Source: Tissierellia bacterium
GTDB lineage: Bacteria; Bacillota; Clostridia; Tissierellales; Sedimentibacteraceae
DNA length: 64,000 nucleotides
NCBI GenBank assembly: GCA_012520455.1
Contig: JAAYOE010000037.1
Span: forward strand, 6,027-70,026
Reading direction: 5' to 3'
Below, piece by piece: positions 20,827 to 26,006 of this stretch. Numbering within the stretch: position 1 is the first letter of the stretch; every line of letters starts with the position of its first letter. The position numbers and the translations under genes are program-made. The notes beneath the pieces are model-generated. The model was not told the origin of the DNA. It saw only the letters and a list, made by a program, of their open reading frames with translations, and searched no databases.

Positions 20827-20870
20827 ATGACAAGGGGATGACAAGGGGACGGGGGTAGTGTCATCTTTTT
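20827..20870 (+). repeat. REP-like repeat: partial copy (20827-20837) plus full 27-bp copy (20838-20864) with CTTTTT tail
   Basis: ATGACAAGGGG-ATGACAAGGGGACGGGGGTAGTGTCAT-CTTTTT, identical to copies at 23401 and 25950. Confidence 0.9.
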
Positions 20871-20886
20871 TCTCTTATTTTACAGG

Positions 20887-20915
20887 TTGACCTAATTATT
20901 TATCTGTGTTATTAT
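20887..20915 (+). promoter_or_regulatory. Sigma-A promoter for mtaB
   Basis: TTGACC-17-TATTAT with extended -10 TG. Confidence 0.6.
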
Positions 20916-20945
20916 CATCCAAGAAATTTACCTCAAGGAGCAACA

Positions 20946-22259
20946 ATGAATAAGGATACAAAAAAAGAATATACTGTTTCTTTCATCACCTTGGGCTGCA
21001 AGGTAAACCAGTACGAAACAGAAGCTATGACTGAAGTTTTGGAGGCTGAAGGATTTAAAGTTCTTCCTCCCGATGAAATCAGCGACATATATATCATCAA
21101 CACTTGTGCAGTCACCAAGGAAAGCGAAAGAAAATCCAGGCAGTTTATAAACAAGGCAAAAAGAATAAATCCTGATGCTTTAGTGGTTGCGGTAGGCTGC
21201 AGCGTCCAGTTGAATTCCGAAAAAATCAATAAAGAAACAGCAGCAGACATAATTATCGGGACAAAGCATAAAGGTAATATAGGAAGAATCATTAAAGATA
21301 AGCTTAATAACACTGAACAAACTTATGCTATCGAAGAATTTAAAAGCAGGGAAAGCTTCGAAGAGTTAAAGATAAGTACCCTTCATGATAAGACCCGGGC
21401 TAATATAAAGATTCAGGACGGCTGCAGTCAGTTTTGCTCCTACTGCATCATTCCTTATGTCAGAGGACCCGTAAGAAGCAGGAATCATGAAGATATCATA
21501 AAGGAAGTAACAAGAATAGCAAAAAGCGGCTATAAAGAAGTCGTACTGAACGGAATACACATATCCTCTTATGGAAAGGACCTTAAAGAAAAGTATTATC
21601 TCATTGATTTGATAGAAGATATAAATAAAATAGAAGGAATTGAAAGAATCAGGCTTGGGTCCATAGAGCCCAACCTGATAAATGAAGATTTCATGAAAAG
21701 ATATGCAGACTTGGACAAGACCTGCGACCATTTTCATCTATCCCTCCAAAGCGGCAGCGATAGTGTTTTAAAGAGGATGAACAGAAGATATACCGGGGAT
21801 GAATATAAAAACAAGGTGGATTTAATAAGAAAATTCATGCCTGGTGCGGGAATCACAACAGATATAATTGTGGGTTTTCCCGGAGAAAGCGACGAGGAAT
21901 TCAATGAGACCCTGGAATTTGTGAGACAAATAAAATTCTCCCGAATACATGTTTTCAAGTATTCTGTTCGGGAAGGCACCAAGGCTGCGGAAATAGAACC
22001 CAAAATAATAGATTCGGTAAAATCGGAAAGAAGCAAAATCCTTATTGATTTAGGCGAAAGAATCTCCCGTGAATTCATGAAGAAATTTATCGGCAGGAAC
22101 CTGTCGGTATTGATAGAAACCGAAAAAAATAATGACCGGTATGAGGGTTATACAACAAATTACTTGAAAGTTTTGTTAAAAAGTGATATAAATGTTAAAA
22201 ACGAAATAATTAACGTTCATATAAAGGGAATCAGGAACGATTATTTATTGGCTGAATAA
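20946..22259 (+). CDS. mtaB: tRNA t6A37 methylthiotransferase
   Basis: TLGCKVNQYETE, INTCAVT, radical-SAM GCSQFCSYC, TDIIVGFPGE, C-terminal TRAM. Confidence 0.92.
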   Translation: MNKDTKKEYTVSFITLGCKVNQYETEAMTEVLEAEGFKVLPPDEISDIYIINTCAVTKESERKSRQFINKAKRINPDALVVAVGCSVQLNSEKINKETAADIIIGTKHKGNIGRIIKDKLNNTEQTYAIEEFKSRESFEELKISTLHDKTRANIKIQDGCSQFCSYCIIPYVRGPVRSRNHEDIIKEVTRIAKSGYKEVVLNGIHISSYGKDLKEKYYLIDLIEDINKIEGIERIRLGSIEPNLINEDFMKRYADLDKTCDHFHLSLQSGSDSVLKRMNRRYTGDEYKNKVDLIRKFMPGAGITTDIIVGFPGESDEEFNETLEFVRQIKFSRIHVFKYSVREGTKAAEIEPKIIDSVKSERSKILIDLGERISREFMKKFIGRNLSVLIETEKNNDRYEGYTTNYLKVLLKSDINVKNEIINVHIKGIRNDYLLAE

Positions 22260-22280
22260 ATTGTGAAGTGAGGTGAAATA

Positions 22281-22622
22281 ATGGATTGTATTTTTTGCAA
22301 GATTGCAAACAAAGAAATTCCGTCTCAGTTGGTATTTGAAAATGAATACGTAGCAGCTTTCAGAGATTTGGCTCCCCAAGCTCCTGTGCATATATTAGTC
22401 GTGCCAAAGGTTCACATAGGTTCAATGAATGAAATCACTGAGGAAAACAGCCATTTGGTTGCAGAAATCTTTAAAGCAATCAATAAAATCGCCGAGTCAG
22501 AAGGTATTAAGGATACCGGCTACAGGGTGATCAGCAACTGCGGCAAAGACGCTTGTCAATCGGTGCAACATTTGCATTTTCATGTTTTAGGCGGAAAGAA
22601 ATTATCAGAATCATTAGCATAA
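22281..22622 (+). CDS. Histidine triad (HIT) nucleotide-binding protein
   Basis: DCIFCKI, HLHFHVLGG. Confidence 0.95.
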   Translation: MDCIFCKIANKEIPSQLVFENEYVAAFRDLAPQAPVHILVVPKVHIGSMNEITEENSHLVAEIFKAINKIAESEGIKDTGYRVISNCGKDACQSVQHLHFHVLGGKKLSESLA

Positions 22623-22627
22623 ATTAC

Positions 22628-22656
22628 TTGCATTTACTTATTCTATGTTATATAAT
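22628..22656 (+). promoter_or_regulatory. Sigma-A promoter for rpsU-yqeY
   Basis: TTGCAT-17-TATAAT. Confidence 0.7.
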
Positions 22657-22732
22657 AATAAATGCTATTTCAAACTCGCTGGTGTCTTAGGACAACTGGT
22701 AATTGAGGACGAGGGGAGGGTAGCAAGCAATA

Positions 22733-22918
22733 ATGACAGAGGTAAGAGTAAGAGAAAACGAGTCCATAGATAATGCTCTTAGAAGATTTAAAAGACAATG
22801 CGCACTTACCGGCGTGATGTCTGAAGTAAGAAAAAGAGAACATTATGAAAAGCCAAGCGTTAAGCGTAAAAAAAAGGCTGAAGCGGCTCGCAGGAAGAAG
22901 AATAAGAAAGCAAGATAA
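22733..22918 (+). CDS. rpsU: 30S ribosomal protein S21
   Basis: [36 protein letters not shown]. Confidence 0.97.
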
Positions 22919-22929
22919 GAGGTGAAAGC

Positions 22930-23373
22930 ATGCCTTTAAAAGAGAAACTCATGGAAGATTTAAAAGAATCCATGAAGTCTAAGAACAAAGTCAGAAAAGA
23001 TACCATTACAATGGTCAGAGCTGCAATTAAACAAAAAGAAGTTGACGAAAGAATCGAATTAACAGATGCTGAAATAGTAGATATAATAGCCAAGCAGGTT
23101 AAAAATAAAAAAGATTCGATATCTGACTTTCAAAAAGGCAATCGACAGGATCTTGTAGATCTAACCAACCAAGAAATCAAAATACTTTTAGAATATTTAC
23201 CGCCTCAACTGTCAGATGAAGACCTTGATGCAATTGTGAAAGAAGCAATCGAAGCAACAGGGGCCCAGTCCAAAAAAGATATGGGCAAGCTCATGGCCTT
23301 CATAATGCCCAAGGTAAAGGGCAAGGCTGACGGTAAACATGTAAATGAAATTGTGGCTAAATATATAAAGTAG
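22930..23373 (+). CDS. yqeY: GatB/YqeY domain protein
   Basis: LKEKLMEDLKESMK, YLPPQLS, MGKLM..KGKADG; follows rpsU. Confidence 0.93.
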   Translation: MPLKEKLMEDLKESMKSKNKVRKDTITMVRAAIKQKEVDERIELTDAEIVDIIAKQVKNKKDSISDFQKGNRQDLVDLTNQEIKILLEYLPPQLSDEDLDAIVKEAIEATGAQSKKDMGKLMAFIMPKVKGKADGKHVNEIVAKYIK

Positions 23374-23374
23374 T

Positions 23375-23399
23375 AAAAGAACCCCATGGGTTCTTTTTT
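23375..23399 (+). terminator. Intrinsic terminator of rpsU-yqeY
   Basis: AAAAGAACCC-CAT-GGGTTCTTTTTT. Confidence 0.8.
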
Positions 23400-23400
23400 A

Positions 23401-23462
23401 ATGACAAGGGGACGGGGGTAGTGTCATCTTTTTTTATCACGGGAAGACGTGGGCACTGTCAT
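23401..23462 (+). repeat. REP-like repeat tandem: perfect copy 23401-23427 and degenerate copy 23436-23462
   Basis: ATGACAAGGGGACGGGGGTAGTGTCAT then CTTTTTTT then ATCACGGGAAGACGTGGGCACTGTCAT (19/27). Confidence 0.85.
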
Positions 23463-23583
23463 AATTTATTATAAGTAAGCAAAGAATCACAAGCATATAG
23501 ATGATTATTTAGAATGTTTTCAACGGACTTTTTTGGGTAGATATATATTGATTAAGATAGAGAATATATGAAAGAGGGATTTT

Positions 23584-24360
23584 ATGAACCAAGTAAAAGA
23601 TATGCCGGTACTCTTCGTGGGACACGGCTCACCCATGAATGCCATAGAAGATAACAAGTTTGTCCGCGAATGGGAAGCTTTAGCGGATAAGATACCCAAA
23701 CCAAGAGCAATACTATCAATTTCAGCCCACTGGTTTACGAAGGGTACAAAAATTATGGATGAAGAATCACCTGAAACCATATACGATATGTATGGATTTC
23801 CGGATGACCTTTACAAAATAGTCTATGCTGCCAAAGGCTCTCCCGGCCTTGCTCATAAAACTGCTGAAATGATAAACCGTCCCGTTGAAATTGATAATTC
23901 ATGGGGTTATGACCACGGCACGTGGTCGGTACTCTGCAGAATATATCCAAAGGCTGACATTCCTCTTGTTCAACTCAGCATAGACCGCGATGCTTCAATG
24001 GAGGACCATTATAATATCGGCAAGGAGCTGATTAAACTTCGGGAAGAAGGTGTCCTGATCTTTGGAAGCGGGAATGTTACCCACAATTTAAGAAGACTTG
24101 ACTGGCACAATAAGGGGGGATATGATTGGGCTGAAGATTTTGACAAATACATCATTGAAAATGTAATAAAGGGAAACTTTGATAACGTTATTGACTATAG
24201 AAGGGCAGGACAGTCAGCGGATTACGCTGTACCGATTGCTGATCATTTTGCACCCCTCTTATATGTTTTAGGTGCCTTGAAAGGCGGAGAAAAGACGAGG
24301 GTCTTTAATGATGAGTGCATATTGGGTTCACTTTCCATGACAAGCTTTTTATTTGAATAA
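23584..24360 (+). CDS. 4,5-DOPA extradiol dioxygenase-like (YgiD/LigB family)
   Basis: LFVGHGSPMNA, SAHW, GYDHGTW, GSGNVTHNL, DHFAPL. Confidence 0.9.
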   Translation: MNQVKDMPVLFVGHGSPMNAIEDNKFVREWEALADKIPKPRAILSISAHWFTKGTKIMDEESPETIYDMYGFPDDLYKIVYAAKGSPGLAHKTAEMINRPVEIDNSWGYDHGTWSVLCRIYPKADIPLVQLSIDRDASMEDHYNIGKELIKLREEGVLIFGSGNVTHNLRRLDWHNKGGYDWAEDFDKYIIENVIKGNFDNVIDYRRAGQSADYAVPIADHFAPLLYVLGALKGGEKTRVFNDECILGSLSMTSFLFE

Positions 24361-24366
24361 AATGCA

Positions 24367-24393
24367 AAAAAAGAACTCAAGGGGTTCTTTTTT
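24367..24393 (+). terminator. Intrinsic terminator
   Basis: AAAAAAGAACTC-AAG-GGGTTCTTTTTT. Confidence 0.75.
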
Positions 24394-24400
24394 GATGCCT

Positions 24401-24460
24401 AAAAGATGACACTAAGCCCCGTCCCCTTGTCATATAACAAGGGGAGGAGGGTAGTGACAT
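24401..24460. repeat. Inverted pair of REP-like repeats (REPIN-like): minus copy 24406-24433 and plus copy 24434-24460
   Basis: ATGACACTAAGCCCCGTCCCCTTGTCAT abutting ATAACAAGGGGAGGAGGGTAGTGACAT (23/27). Confidence 0.85.
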
Positions 24461-24489
24461 TACTAAAGAATAATCGACAAAAACCTTGA

Positions 24490-24518
24490 TTGACAGGCTT
24501 TTTGCCCTATGGTATAAA
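24490..24518 (+). promoter_or_regulatory. Sigma-A promoter for the RAYT gene
   Basis: TTGACA-17-TATAAA with extended -10 TG. Confidence 0.75.
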
Positions 24519-24539
24519 TTACCAAAGGGGTGAGTATTC

Positions 24540-25304
24540 ATGCCAAGAACTTCGAGACTTAAAAGTGAAAGCGGAATATACCATATAATAATGAGGGGTA
24601 TTAACAGACAAAGGATATTTTTTGATGATGAAGATTGCAACAGGTTTATTCACACTTTAATGGAATATAAAGATGTGTGCGGTTTTAAAATCTATACCTA
24701 TTGCTTGATGGAAAATCATATGCATTTATTGTTGCACGAATGCAAGGAATTGTTGGGAACTATCATGAGAAGGATATGCAGCTCTTATGTTTTTTGGTAT
24801 AACAAAAAATATGACAGGATTGGATATTTGTTTCAAGATCGTTTTAAAAGCGAGCCTGTGGAGGATGATACATATTTTTTGACAGTATTGCGATACATAC
24901 TTCAAAATCCGGTAAAAGCAGGACTTGTCGATAAGATTGAAGATTATGAGTGGACAAACTATAATGATTATATTGGAATAAACAGGATGACGGATACTCA
25001 TTTTGTTTTGCAATTTTTTGATGAAATCGATAAGGTAAATGCATTGAAGCTATTTATTGAATATGTGAATAAAGAAAATGGCGATGAATGTATGGATGTA
25101 AACGAAAGAAGGCAGCCGGCTGACCATGAAGCAATAAGAATAATTAAAAACTGCTGTAAGATTAATGATGAGAAGGACTTGCTTAAACTTGGAAAGGATG
25201 TAAGGAACACATATTTAAGAGAATTGATAAAAAAACATAATTTGTCAATAAGACAAATTGAAAGATTGACAGGTATAGGGAGAGGGGTAATCCAGAAACT
25301 GTAG
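24540..25304 (+). mobile_element. REP-associated tyrosine transposase (RAYT; HUH/Y1, IS200/IS605 superfamily) with C-terminal HTH
   Basis: MPRTSR, YHIIMRGINRQRIF, HUH motif YCLMENHMHLLL, LFQDRFKS, LRYILQNPVKAGLV (catalytic Tyr), tail LSIRQIERLTGIGRGVI; intact 254-aa ORF. Confidence 0.88.
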
Positions 25305-25331
25305 ATGACATTACCCCCGTCCCCTTGTCAT
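25305..25331 (-). repeat. REP-like repeat starting at the base after the RAYT stop codon
   Basis: Reverse complement ATGACAAGGGGACGGGGGTAATGTCAT (26/27). Confidence 0.9.
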
Positions 25332-25349
25332 CTAAGTGAGGAGGAAATT

Positions 25350-25883
25350 ATGATAAAGGATATTGAAAAAATTGAAAAGGCAAGATTAATTATACAAAAG
25401 ATTGCAGACGGAACAAATCCGATTAACGGCCAGCCCGTAGAAGCTGACAGTTTTCTCCATGATTCAAGGATTATCAGGTGTTTTTATTTTATTTCAGAGG
25501 TATTGGAGGCCGTTGTTAAGGGTACATACAGCAATAAAAAGATTAATGATTTTGTAATTACCGATGAGCAAAAAAACAAGGTAGTTTTTACCGAGGGAAA
25601 TATAGGAGTTAATGAAGCTGCCAGGTGCATTAATCTGCAACTGAATCCCTTAATGAGCAAAAAAGTAACGGGAGCCCTATTGAATAAAGGATTAAAAAGA
25701 TTAGGCATACTTTCGGAAGCAGTAGAAGATGGGAAGAAAAGAACCGTCACAAATGAAATTTCAAAAGACTACGGTTTCTTCTCAGAGAAGAGAAGTTATG
25801 ACGGCAGAGAATATGATATGGTATTAATTAATAATGAAGGCAAAAAATATATTTTAGATAATATTGAAAAGATTATGGAATAA
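25350..25883 (+). CDS. Hypothetical protein (177 aa); C-terminal half resembles KilA-C/ANT-like DNA-binding domains
   Basis: RBS GAGGAGG, ATG 25350 (ORF-track ATG 25305 lies inside the repeat); LNKGLKRLGIL..RTVT..G..VLINNEGKKYI pattern judged by eye. Confidence 0.75.
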   Translation: MIKDIEKIEKARLIIQKIADGTNPINGQPVEADSFLHDSRIIRCFYFISEVLEAVVKGTYSNKKINDFVITDEQKNKVVFTEGNIGVNEAARCINLQLNPLMSKKVTGALLNKGLKRLGILSEAVEDGKKRTVTNEISKDYGFFSEKRSYDGREYDMVLINNEGKKYILDNIEKIME

Positions 25884-25890
25884 GGTGGGT

Positions 25891-25976
25891 ACCTCTTTCC
25901 TTGTCACGTAAAAAGATGACGCAACCCCCGTCCCCTTGTCATGAAAAAGATGACACTACCCCCGTCCCCTTGTCAT
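25891..25976 (-). repeat. Tandem REP-like repeats: perfect 25950-25976, variant 25916-25942, degenerate partial near 25891-25907
   Basis: Minus strand reads ATGACAAGGGGACGGGGGTAGTGTCAT-CTTTTTC-ATGACAAGGGGACGGGGGTTGCGTCAT-CTTTTTAC-GTGACAAGGAAAG; period 34-35 bp. Confidence 0.9.
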
Positions 25977-25977
25977 C

Positions 25978-26003
25978 AAAAGAGCCCTGAAAGGGGTCTT
26001 TTT
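25978..26003 (+). terminator. Intrinsic terminator at right end of island
   Basis: AAAAGAGCCC-TGAAA-GGGGTCTTTT. Confidence 0.65.
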
Positions 26004-26006
26004 ATT

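Follow-up and report, generated by a model that had tools for sequence, protein, structure and literature searches.

A G-rich stem-loop repeat family of Tissierellia and Clostridia and the TIRYT-type HUH/Y1 transposase that it accompanies

Within a 64,000-nt stretch of DNA from a Tissierellia bacterium (contig JAAYOE010000037.1, positions 6,027 to 70,026; the whole of this stretch is termed the window) we encountered a cluster of short G-rich repeats surrounding a gene for a tyrosine transposase, which raises the question of what these repeats are and how they relate to that gene. The 27-nt consensus unit is ATGACAAGGGGACGGGGGTAGTGTCAT. A preliminary description had assigned it to the repetitive extragenic palindromic (REP) sequences and had seen in it both a GTAG and a TGTC/CGTC tag. 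Our analysis leads us to a different view of its parts: the unit is very probably a REP-like single-stranded DNA hairpin and the cognate substrate of a vertically inherited, domesticated HUH/Y1 transposase of the TIRYT type (TnpA_REP subclass 2.1). The identity of this system is well supported, and we infer from analogy with related enzymes that the protein binds, nicks and spreads the unit.

Exact copies of the 27-mer, which had no match in dinucleotide-preserving shuffles, are located on the forward strand at 20838-20864, between a UPF0102 gene and a MiaB-like gene, and at 23401-23427, directly after the terminator of a yqeY-like gene; both carry a CTTTTT tail (to 20870 and 23433). The third exact copy is on the reverse strand at 25950-25976, followed by an intrinsic terminator on the forward strand at 25984-26005, and is in tandem with a reverse-strand unit bearing two changes (GTTGCGTCAT) at 25916-25942. 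The remaining good copies are a reverse-strand unit with one change at 25305-25331, a forward-strand unit with four changes at 24434-24460 and a reverse-strand variant at 24406-24433 that reaches 28 nt by a 1-nt insertion (...GGGGCTTAGTGTCAT). CTTTT(T) stands directly 3' of five of these seven. Two more degraded copies were recognised: a forward-strand unit at 23436-23462, read from the sequence and identical at 19 of 27 positions, and a reverse-strand stub at 25899-25907, formerly placed at about 25891, which retains the 5' GTGACAAGG alone. An 11-nt forward-strand half-unit, ATGACAAGGGG, also read from the sequence, comprises the 5' arm and the start of the loop, lacks the 3' part and abuts the 20838 unit (20827-20837). 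Scanning the window revealed no copies outside 20.8-26.0 kb, except for a decayed forward-strand remnant, ATGATAGGGGGA, at 529-540. The copies reported earlier are therefore all present, variants included, and the 6-bp terminal inverted repeat ATGACA/TGTCAT was correctly described.

The suggested tie to a REP-associated tyrosine transposase (RAYT) also holds, as the gene concerned (24540-25304, forward strand, 254 amino acids) lies in the middle of the interval. It is bracketed by the 24434-24460 unit, 79 nt before the ATG and with its G-rich strand on the coding strand, and by the inverted 25305-25331 unit, which follows the TAG stop codon at a distance of 0 nt; these form the left and right terminal units of the transposase module. 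The product was assigned to the RAYT/TIRYT type of HUH/Y1 transposase from Pfam (Y1_Tnp, E 1.4e-13), NCBIfam, BLASTP and structural comparison. The HUH motif is H60-M-H62, the catalytic tyrosine is Y119 within RYILQNPVKAGLV, and a C-terminal helical domain terminates in LSIRQIERLTGIGRGVIQKL. Every residue that is invariant among 20 homologues (57-76% identity), including the HUH motif and the tyrosine, is present in the window protein. A profile of these homologues found Escherichia coli TnpA_REP (4ER8) as the sole significant solved relative in the PDB; it was reached through the profile alone, since phmmer with the single sequence gave no match there. The AlphaFold model is modest (predicted local distance difference test, pLDDT, 65; 80-90 in the C-terminal domain), and with it Foldseek returned 4ER8 as the best match, followed by the IS200, ISDra2 and IS608 transposases (IS200/IS605 matches 3e-4 to 1e-2). 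In BLASTP comparisons with the sequences that Di Nocera et al. 2013 give in their Additional file 5, the protein matched the published TIRYTs gbm2474, dau2153, pca3049 and sml4509 at E 1e-33 to 1e-34, and the RAYTs of GTAG REPs at 1e-5 (E. coli b228) and 1e-9 (S. maltophilia 2816, sml2816). In the C-terminal domain, matches to HTH_19 and HTH_3 were below threshold (E 0.007-0.009), and neither hmmscan nor hhalign, the latter with an E. coli DnaA domain IV query, detected likeness to Bac_DnaA_C. The protein family is large, with 4386 members at E <=1e-20. An Rfam match to the archaeal snoRNA sR17 within the coding sequence (25130-25188; 22.9 bits, gathering score 36, E 0.05) is almost certainly due to chance.

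The repeat also occurs outside the window, and the association of unit and gene recurs near transposase homologues in other genomes. At all six closer homologue loci (61-76% identity, plus L058) at least one unit in the + orientation lies 40-100 nt before the start codon and a unit in the - orientation lies 0-2 nt past the stop codon, the unit variants being lineage-specific. Inverted flanking units were seen in L058, L080, L082, L083, L085 and most of L086-L165. A metagenome scan yielded a more distant set of 80 loci (31-64% identity), 60 of them with adequate flanks. The motif GGGAC[GA]G was present on the gene strand in the 260 nt upstream in 47 of the 60, on the other strand in the 200 nt downstream in 45, and on both sides in inverted arrangement in 41, compared with an expectation from composition of about 0.03 per flank by our arithmetic. 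Local alignment of the two flanks gave inverted repeats of 20-45 nt in most distant loci, the right repeat usually lying -6 to +10 nt from the stop codon. In L080 (76% identity) and L082 (65%) the gene lies, as it does in the window, at the chromosomal site between yqeY and yabP-yqfD-phoH, and the identity of the neighbouring genes (73-91% and 62-82%, respectively) is similar to that of the transposase. Since synteny and similar divergence are the pattern of vertical inheritance, the transposase gene appears from these comparisons to be single-copy and vertically inherited, as is the case for domesticated RAYTs (PMC5581495).

What, then, is common to units whose sequences differ between lineages? 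The window unit is predicted to fold into a 6-bp stem, ATGACA/TGTCAT, around a 15-nt G-rich loop, AGGGGACGGGGGTNN; for the 20838 unit the predicted stem is 6-7 bp with a loop of 15 nt. Across loci the arms change in sequence and continue to pair (atgaca/tgtcat, tgtcaa/ttgaca, ggagaca/tgtctcc, gcaggcaa/ttgcctgc, ccgaaacc/ggtttcgg and tggatca/tgatcca), and a stem of at least 5 bp is found in 119 instances with 83 distinct 5' arms, each with its complementary 3' arm. Covariation was assessed in an ungapped alignment of 109 distinct sequences, anchored on GGGAC alone and made with no structure fitting, for a 7-bp stem joining columns 6-12 with 26-32. Paired cells amounted to 74.6%, compared with 46.4% in shuffles, none of 500 reaching the observed value, and sliding the partner columns reduced pairing to 30-46%. 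Cells in which both partners had changed numbered 263, as against 106 in shuffles, and compensatory types were present in all seven pairs. The conserved loop reads (N)GGGGACGG and then either GGGT(N) or TTCT(N); the type GGGACGGGG occurs in 11 of 11 loci with at least 52% identity to the window protein, and GGGACGGTTC in 38 of the 57 loci below 52% identity. Because the arms vary yet pair, and the loop is conserved and tracks the protein clade, the alignment indicates that the unit is a stem-loop with a loop that is probably recognised by the protein. The TGTC/CGTC tag of the preliminary description finds its explanation here: TGTCAT pairs with ATGACA as the 3' arm of the stem, and it changes together with the 5' arm in other lineages. 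The head-to-head inverted pair at 24406 and 24434 could in addition pair into a single extended hairpin (-16.2 kcal/mol as DNA, z -6.0).

The units are REP-like in being dispersed, extragenic and multi-copy. Searching one genome per species with the exact 18-mer ATGACAAGGGGACGGGGG gave at least 79 loci among genome contigs. Among the matches listed, at least 24 loci fall on five contigs (2.5 Mb in total) of one Sedimentibacter metagenome-assembled genome (MAG), and at least 12 each in one Tissierellia MAG and one uncultured Clostridia MAG; others listed belong to a second Sedimentibacter MAG, Oscillospiraceae, Firmicutes UBA1065, Herbinix, Anaerocolumna, Butyrivibrio, Acetivibrio and further organisms. 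Isolated matches in GC-rich phyla look chance-like (about 17 are expected by our estimate). The window is about 80% identical in DNA to parts of Sedimentibacter and Clostridia MAGs, which makes its source a relative of Sedimentibacter. One of the 79 loci listed, L058, encodes the transposase. A profile of 120 units anchored on GGGGACGGGG has sharp edges at positions 1 and 27 with unconserved flanks, and no target motif or conserved tetranucleotide was found in the 5' flank. Just 18 of the 120 units lie inside open reading frames (ORFs) of at least 120 amino acids, though such ORFs cover 84% of the sampled DNA, and several of these 18 are chance matches or lie in over-extended ORFs. At 71 sites in related genomes, 63 units are single, 5 form tail-to-tail dimers and 3 are tandems.

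A 2.8-kb stretch of the window is present whole in 20 public metagenome runs, which come from biogas, digesters, sludge and landfill. In four of these metagenomes, where the organism has a depth of 32 to 373, the summed contig depth of the unit core (likeness >=97%), as at the 23401 unit, is 65-124x that of the flanks, and after allowing for overlapping 31-mer unitigs we estimate about 60-110 near-exact copies, scaling with the organism, a number derived from metagenome contig depths to which other species may add. Short-read assemblies break within units (20844-20856, 23405-23430 and 25952-25973 in runs X3, X8, X9 and X19), and short high-depth unitigs pile up there. Joints in metagenome contigs that resemble deletions between units are best read as other unit-bearing loci of the same genome and were not counted as excision.

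Three further properties bear on how the units behave. First, 3'-truncated half-units, consisting of the 5' arm and part of the loop and most commonly 14 nt long (ATGACAAGGGGACG), are stacked directly 5' of full units, and such stacks with differing stems are found at window position 20827 and in L015, L042, L049, L060, L072, L083, L085, L128 and L162. There are 34 5' halves upstream and 18 downstream of units, as against 12 and 11 3' halves; we interpret the counts of 3' halves as the level expected from tandem full units. Second, 34 of 87 units (about 39%) abut a stop codon (-4 to +1 nt, with an incoming ORF of at least 100 codons), compared with 7.5 expected from uniform placement in the intergenic gap (binomial p ~1e-14). 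The registers are -4, where the TGA in ATGACA of the unit is itself the stop, -1, where A1 of the unit completes TAA or TGA, and 0, where the stop precedes the unit; both orientations are represented (21:18). Examples of such abutment are window 25302-25331, L022, L043, L054, L001 and L040. At unit ends with no incoming ORF there is no excess of stop-like trinucleotides, so abutment does not reflect a simple sequence target; it might arise by selection alone, if just the spacer between stop codon and terminator tolerates insertion. The excess applies to L001-L085 and the window, counts in the wider mixed-stem family L086-L165 being too small. Third, identical flanks of 2-8 nt, as target-site duplication would leave, are no commoner at units than at a control offset, which is expected for HUH/Y1 elements, unlike DDE miniature inverted-repeat transposable elements (MITEs).

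The copies are also persistent. Between species, identity at orthologous sites is 93.5% for units compared with 69.7% for the 45-nt flanks, a gap that ascertainment explains in part, although pairs between L080 and the window are unaffected; the window 23401 unit, for example, is the ortholog of the lone unit 5' of the transposase gene in L080. Among the orthologous copies, some have decayed and others have switched between single and double. As orthologous sites are occupied or decayed and the units are more conserved than their flanks, the copies appear from sequence to be old, and either constrained or homogenised.

These observations can be accommodated by a mechanism in which the enzyme would bind the folded G-strand hairpin on transiently single-stranded DNA, reading mainly the loop, by analogy with IS200/IS605 and E. 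coli TnpA_REP. It would then nick at the foot of the hairpin and join strands, and this nicking and joining could spread, homogenise or maintain the units. Half-unit stacks, which always start at unit position 1, may be the scars left when a hairpin is nicked at its 5' foot, the 3' end is extended for a short distance and the enzyme-linked 5' end is then religated; a fixed left and a variable right boundary are what we would expect from a 5'-foot nick. The dinucleotide C-T that often lies 3' of the 3' arm (of the 120 units, 50% have C at position 28 and 47% have T at position 29) is a candidate cleavage site.

The position of the left unit suggests that the gene could be autoregulated. In the window a promoter-like site of the transposase gene on the forward strand (24490-24518) comprises TTGACA at 24490-24495, a 17-nt spacer and TGgTATAAA (-10 at 24513-24518), followed by a ribosome-binding site, AAAGGGGTGA. 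It is kept in L080, L082 and L083; an automatic promoter scan passed over it because the final base of the -10 is A. In the window and its nearest relatives this promoter is separate from the hairpin and 30-50 nt downstream of it, whereas in many distant homologues the TTGACA -35 box is supplied by the left hairpin through its 3' arm, and a TGnTATAAT-like -10 follows at 15-18 nt. This arm serves as the -35 hexamer (TTGACA or TTGCCT) in L086, L087, L090, L093, L100, L110, L123 and L162. Judging from this arrangement, enzyme bound at the left unit would occlude its own promoter, and probably autoregulates its gene in this way.

Several points weigh against a substrate hairpin that is still moved by the enzyme. 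The lone window hairpin is weak, at -2.1 kcal/mol as DNA or -4.3 with a flanking G-C pair, and the match of the protein to NCBIfam REP_Tyr_transpos (REP-associated tyrosine transposase) scores 76.8 bits where the cut-off is 80. Unit orientation shows no significant bias with respect to local GC skew (35:25), whereas IS200/IS605 elements have a lagging-strand bias, and none with respect to gene direction (35:39). The two units around the gene are inverted, which would place their G-loop hairpins on opposite strands, unlike the ends of IS608. An all-against-all flank search of 85 loci and the window found no clean pair of filled and empty sites: orthologous sites were occupied, rearranged or decayed, and no insertion junction was definable. 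The copies may, on this comparison, be old and the enzyme perhaps no longer moving them. The half-units could be double-strand binding half-sites for the C-terminal domain, and the copy number has the indirect derivation given above.

This last use of the half-units belongs to an alternative that we consider unlikely, although it fares better than the others: that the units are duplex binding sites, operators or iteron-like, for the C-terminal helix-turn-helix or for another regulator, and that the protein is a DNA-binding or nucleoid factor and not a nuclease. The conserved core AAGGGGACGG, the direct arrays of half-units (arm plus core) beside the gene, the overlap of the left unit with the -35 box in many homologues, the confidently helical C-terminal domain (pLDDT 80-90) with its weak HTH matches and the greater conservation of units than of flanks would all fit such sites. 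Compensatory arm changes over 109 sequences, however, favour a folded single strand, the invariance of HUH and catalytic tyrosine in 20 homologues would argue for retained catalysis, and about 39% of units are at the 3' ends of genes, at stop codons, and not at promoters. The duplex interpretation can moreover be reconciled with a cognate transposase substrate through autoregulation.

That same preference for 3' ends, with 34 of 87 units abutting a stop where 7.5 are expected, could instead indicate an element acting as RNA (a terminator, an mRNA-stabilising hairpin or a modulator of translation termination) or a G-quadruplex, with an incidental link to the transposase. Several window copies have a C+T5 tail or lie next to terminators, and each unit has two G4-5 tracts, so that an adjacent pair might form a quadruplex. 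We nevertheless regard this as highly improbable: orientations are equal with respect to transcription (35:39, and 21:18 for abutting units), so that the loop would be G-rich in some RNAs and C-rich in others; the stem is weak; most units are single and lack four G-tracts; no Rfam family matches; and the clade-matched association with the transposase would be left unexplained.

There is very little chance that the unit is a classical REP tagged by GTAG, or by both GTAG and CGTC, with GTAG acting as a guide beside a hairpin formed between units. The window consensus does have GTAG followed by TGTCAT, the enzyme is a relative of RAYTs, and the proposed layout of GTAG plus the hairpin TGTCAT-CTTTTTC-ATGACA is borne out in the tandem pair 25950/25916; elsewhere it fails, as most sites hold single units, which cannot form an inter-unit hairpin. 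GTAG occupies unit positions 18-21, inside the loop, and is best seen as an accident of the window sub-variant: among the 120 units A occurs at position 20 in 60% and G at position 21 in just 16%, T following at position 22 in 80%, and elsewhere GTAC, GTAT, GTGC and GTGT occur at least as often, with GTAC and GTAT the most frequent natural variants. In characterised REPs the GTAG guide lies 5' of the palindrome and helps to choose CT/CA cleavage sites (PMC8266576). Covariation backs a stem within the unit, which is not GC-rich and does not have a short loop; the protein is far nearer to TIRYTs; and REPs of the CGTC type are without a dedicated transposase (PMC3733652), whereas here a cognate transposase is present. 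The reading is largely refuted. The idea of a MITE of a DDE transposon, or of the ends of an autonomous IS200/IS605 element still jumping whole, draws on terminal inverted repeats, many dispersed copies and a transposase gene between two units, and can be dismissed as having next to no likelihood, given that there are no target-site duplications, that 27 nt is too short for a MITE, that the gene is single-copy and syntenic across the three species compared and is encoded at one of the 79 loci listed, and that the ends of IS200/IS605 are not inverted repeats.

Beyond the identification of the unit as the probable hairpin substrate of the TIRYT-type enzyme, a broader proposal is plausible and put forward tentatively. 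The terminal inverted repeats (TIRs) of subclass 2.1 may be a distinct kind of REP, with a short covarying stem and an 11-17-nt G-rich loop (GGGGACGG plus a clade-specific tail) as the specificity determinant, present as about 100 long-lived single hairpins in Clostridia/Tissierellia; nicking at the 5' foot would leave half-unit stacks, and units would be kept or placed at stop codons and bracket gene-sized insertions (LigB, ORF177 and, in a relative, an ArsR-like gene) near the master gene.

As regards these insertions, window segment 23428-24433 contains a gene for a LigB-type extradiol dioxygenase (23584-24360), a terminator, the degenerate unit and an inverted unit. It is absent at the orthologous L080 site, where a lone unit (233-259) has a left flank matching that of the window 23401 unit and a right flank matching that of the 24434 unit. 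At the same place in L082 (1912-2898) an ArsR-like HTH_5 gene is found between two units. Gene-sized DNA thus seems, from these alignments, to have been gained or lost at units beside the transposase gene. On the other side, between the 25305 unit and the 25916/25950 units, a 177-amino-acid ORF of unassigned function (ORF177; 25350-25883, forward strand) has a good ribosome-binding site and matched nothing in Pfam, NCBIfam, PHROGs or PADLOC. It lies directly 3' of the transposase gene in L080/L081, with 80% amino acid identity, and is missing from the more distant homologue loci examined; its membership of the transposase/repeat system is uncertain.

The remnant at 529-540 is just 5' of the ribosome-binding site of a minus-strand gene ending at about 514, and loci L052 and L033, from genomes about 80% identical, have there a full unit, ATGACAAGGGGACGGGGGTACTGTCAC, intact and mutually identical. 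Another hairpin family, whose loop is GGGGACGGTTCT (read there as the complement ...GAGAACCGTCCCC...), is often found directly beside the 27-mer, sometimes in tandem, in related genomes (L021 2716-2745, L026 1440-1516, L038, L047, L060 5629-5690, L076, L077 and L014). This loop type is that found beside the more distant transposase homologues, and genomes with both families probably hold two enzyme/repeat pairs and mixed clusters, as far as their sequences tell. A 25-nt variant, ATGACAAGGGGACGGGGGTTTGTCAA (L055 115-169, L009, L019, L025 and L064; Oscillospiraceae MAG), lacks two bases of the loop and has its stem displaced by one position (TGACAA/TTGTCA), with pairing kept.

Domesticated transposases of the RAYT type and their repeats serve as a model of long-lived, vertically inherited genomic 'replicators', and their biochemistry has so far come entirely from proteobacterial GTAG REPs. 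In size, subclass 2.1/TIRYT ranks second among the subclasses; its substrate is undefined and the literature reports no REP-like structure for it. If the broader proposal made above is true, TIRYTs and RAYTs would be united mechanistically and subclass 2.1 would gain its first defined substrate. The window and its relatives supply a synthesizable 27-nt hairpin, natural arm and loop variants, half-units and a matched 254-amino-acid enzyme from a common organism of anaerobic digesters. As contigs end inside units, the repeats also matter for the binning of digester metagenomes.

How does this system compare with those already described? With IS200/IS605 elements (IS608, ISDra2) it shares the HUH/Y1 fold, the lack of target duplication and, if our inference holds, the recognition of a single-stranded hairpin. 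It differs in having inverted ends, a gene that is not multi-copy, no 5' target tetranucleotide and no strand bias. It also resembles REPINs (Bertels and Rainey 2011, PMC3116915) and the Group 1 RAYTs, among which the window transposase is probably to be counted. Bertels et al. 2017 (PMC5581495) recorded Group 1 in Clostridia, where the 16-mers beside the genes are moderately repeated, about 12 times. Domestication, vertical inheritance and the persistence of repeats at orthologous sites are common to both. A replicating REPIN is an inverted doublet, however, whereas here 63 of 71 sites are single and 5 are tail-to-tail, and the estimated copy number (about 60-120) is well above the roughly 12 reported for Group 1.

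The REPs and REPtrons that accompany RAYTs (TnpA_REP groups 2 and 3; E. coli, Stenotrophomonas, Marinomonas; PMC3333891, PMC3479197, PMC8266576) are likewise short, extragenic, high-copy hairpins associated with a single-copy, vertically inherited HUH/Y1 gene between inverted copies; there is no target duplication, 4ER8 is the nearest structure, and enzyme and repeat co-evolve. In contrast to these, the units described here have no conserved 5' GTAG, and their short A/T-rich stem and large G-rich loop of 11-17 nt differ from the GC-rich stem and 3-5-nt loop of classical REPs, the purine-rich core having been rightly singled out in the preliminary description as unlike them. They are mostly single, whereas REPs occur in arrays of bacterial interspersed mosaic elements (BIMEs) or doublets, and the window protein is about 90 amino acids longer, with its C-terminal helical domain.

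The repeat family belongs to a known kind, the repeats of TIRYTs, a biochemically unexplored class. Di Nocera et al. 2013 (PMC3733652) introduced 'TIRtrons' and 'TIRYT' for RAYT-like genes with TIRs on either side; many of these TIRs share GGGGWSAS, and some families, found singly, as dimers or in groups, are moderately abundant. Quentin et al. 2018 (PMC6006769) equated TIRYT with TnpA_REP subclass 2.1. We did not find the window sequence family or its host clade (Tissierellia/Clostridia of anaerobic digesters) in the searchable literature, nor the copy number, the covarying stem-loop with clade-matched loop, the half-unit stacks or the abutment of stop codons, some of which may appear in figures or in papers that are not open. 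The motif of the window family, GGGGACGG, fits seven of the eight positions of GGGGWSAS, with G where A is expected, and related loci L092 and L149 carry GGGGACAG, which fits it. Each repeat here is a covarying stem-loop with a conserved loop, dispersed in some 10^2 copies, and at the C-terminus, for which TIRtrons are described with an HTH (Bac_DnaA_C, HTH_23 or HTH_28), the window protein has a helical domain with sub-threshold HTH matches and no detected likeness to DnaA. In other respects the resemblance to TIRtrons is close: a Y1/HUH gene is flanked by inverted repeats with a GGGG-A-C-purine-G core, the right repeat touches the stop codon or extends over it, repeats occur elsewhere as singles, dimers and groups, and the window protein is nearer to TIRYTs (E ~1e-34) than to REP-associated RAYTs.

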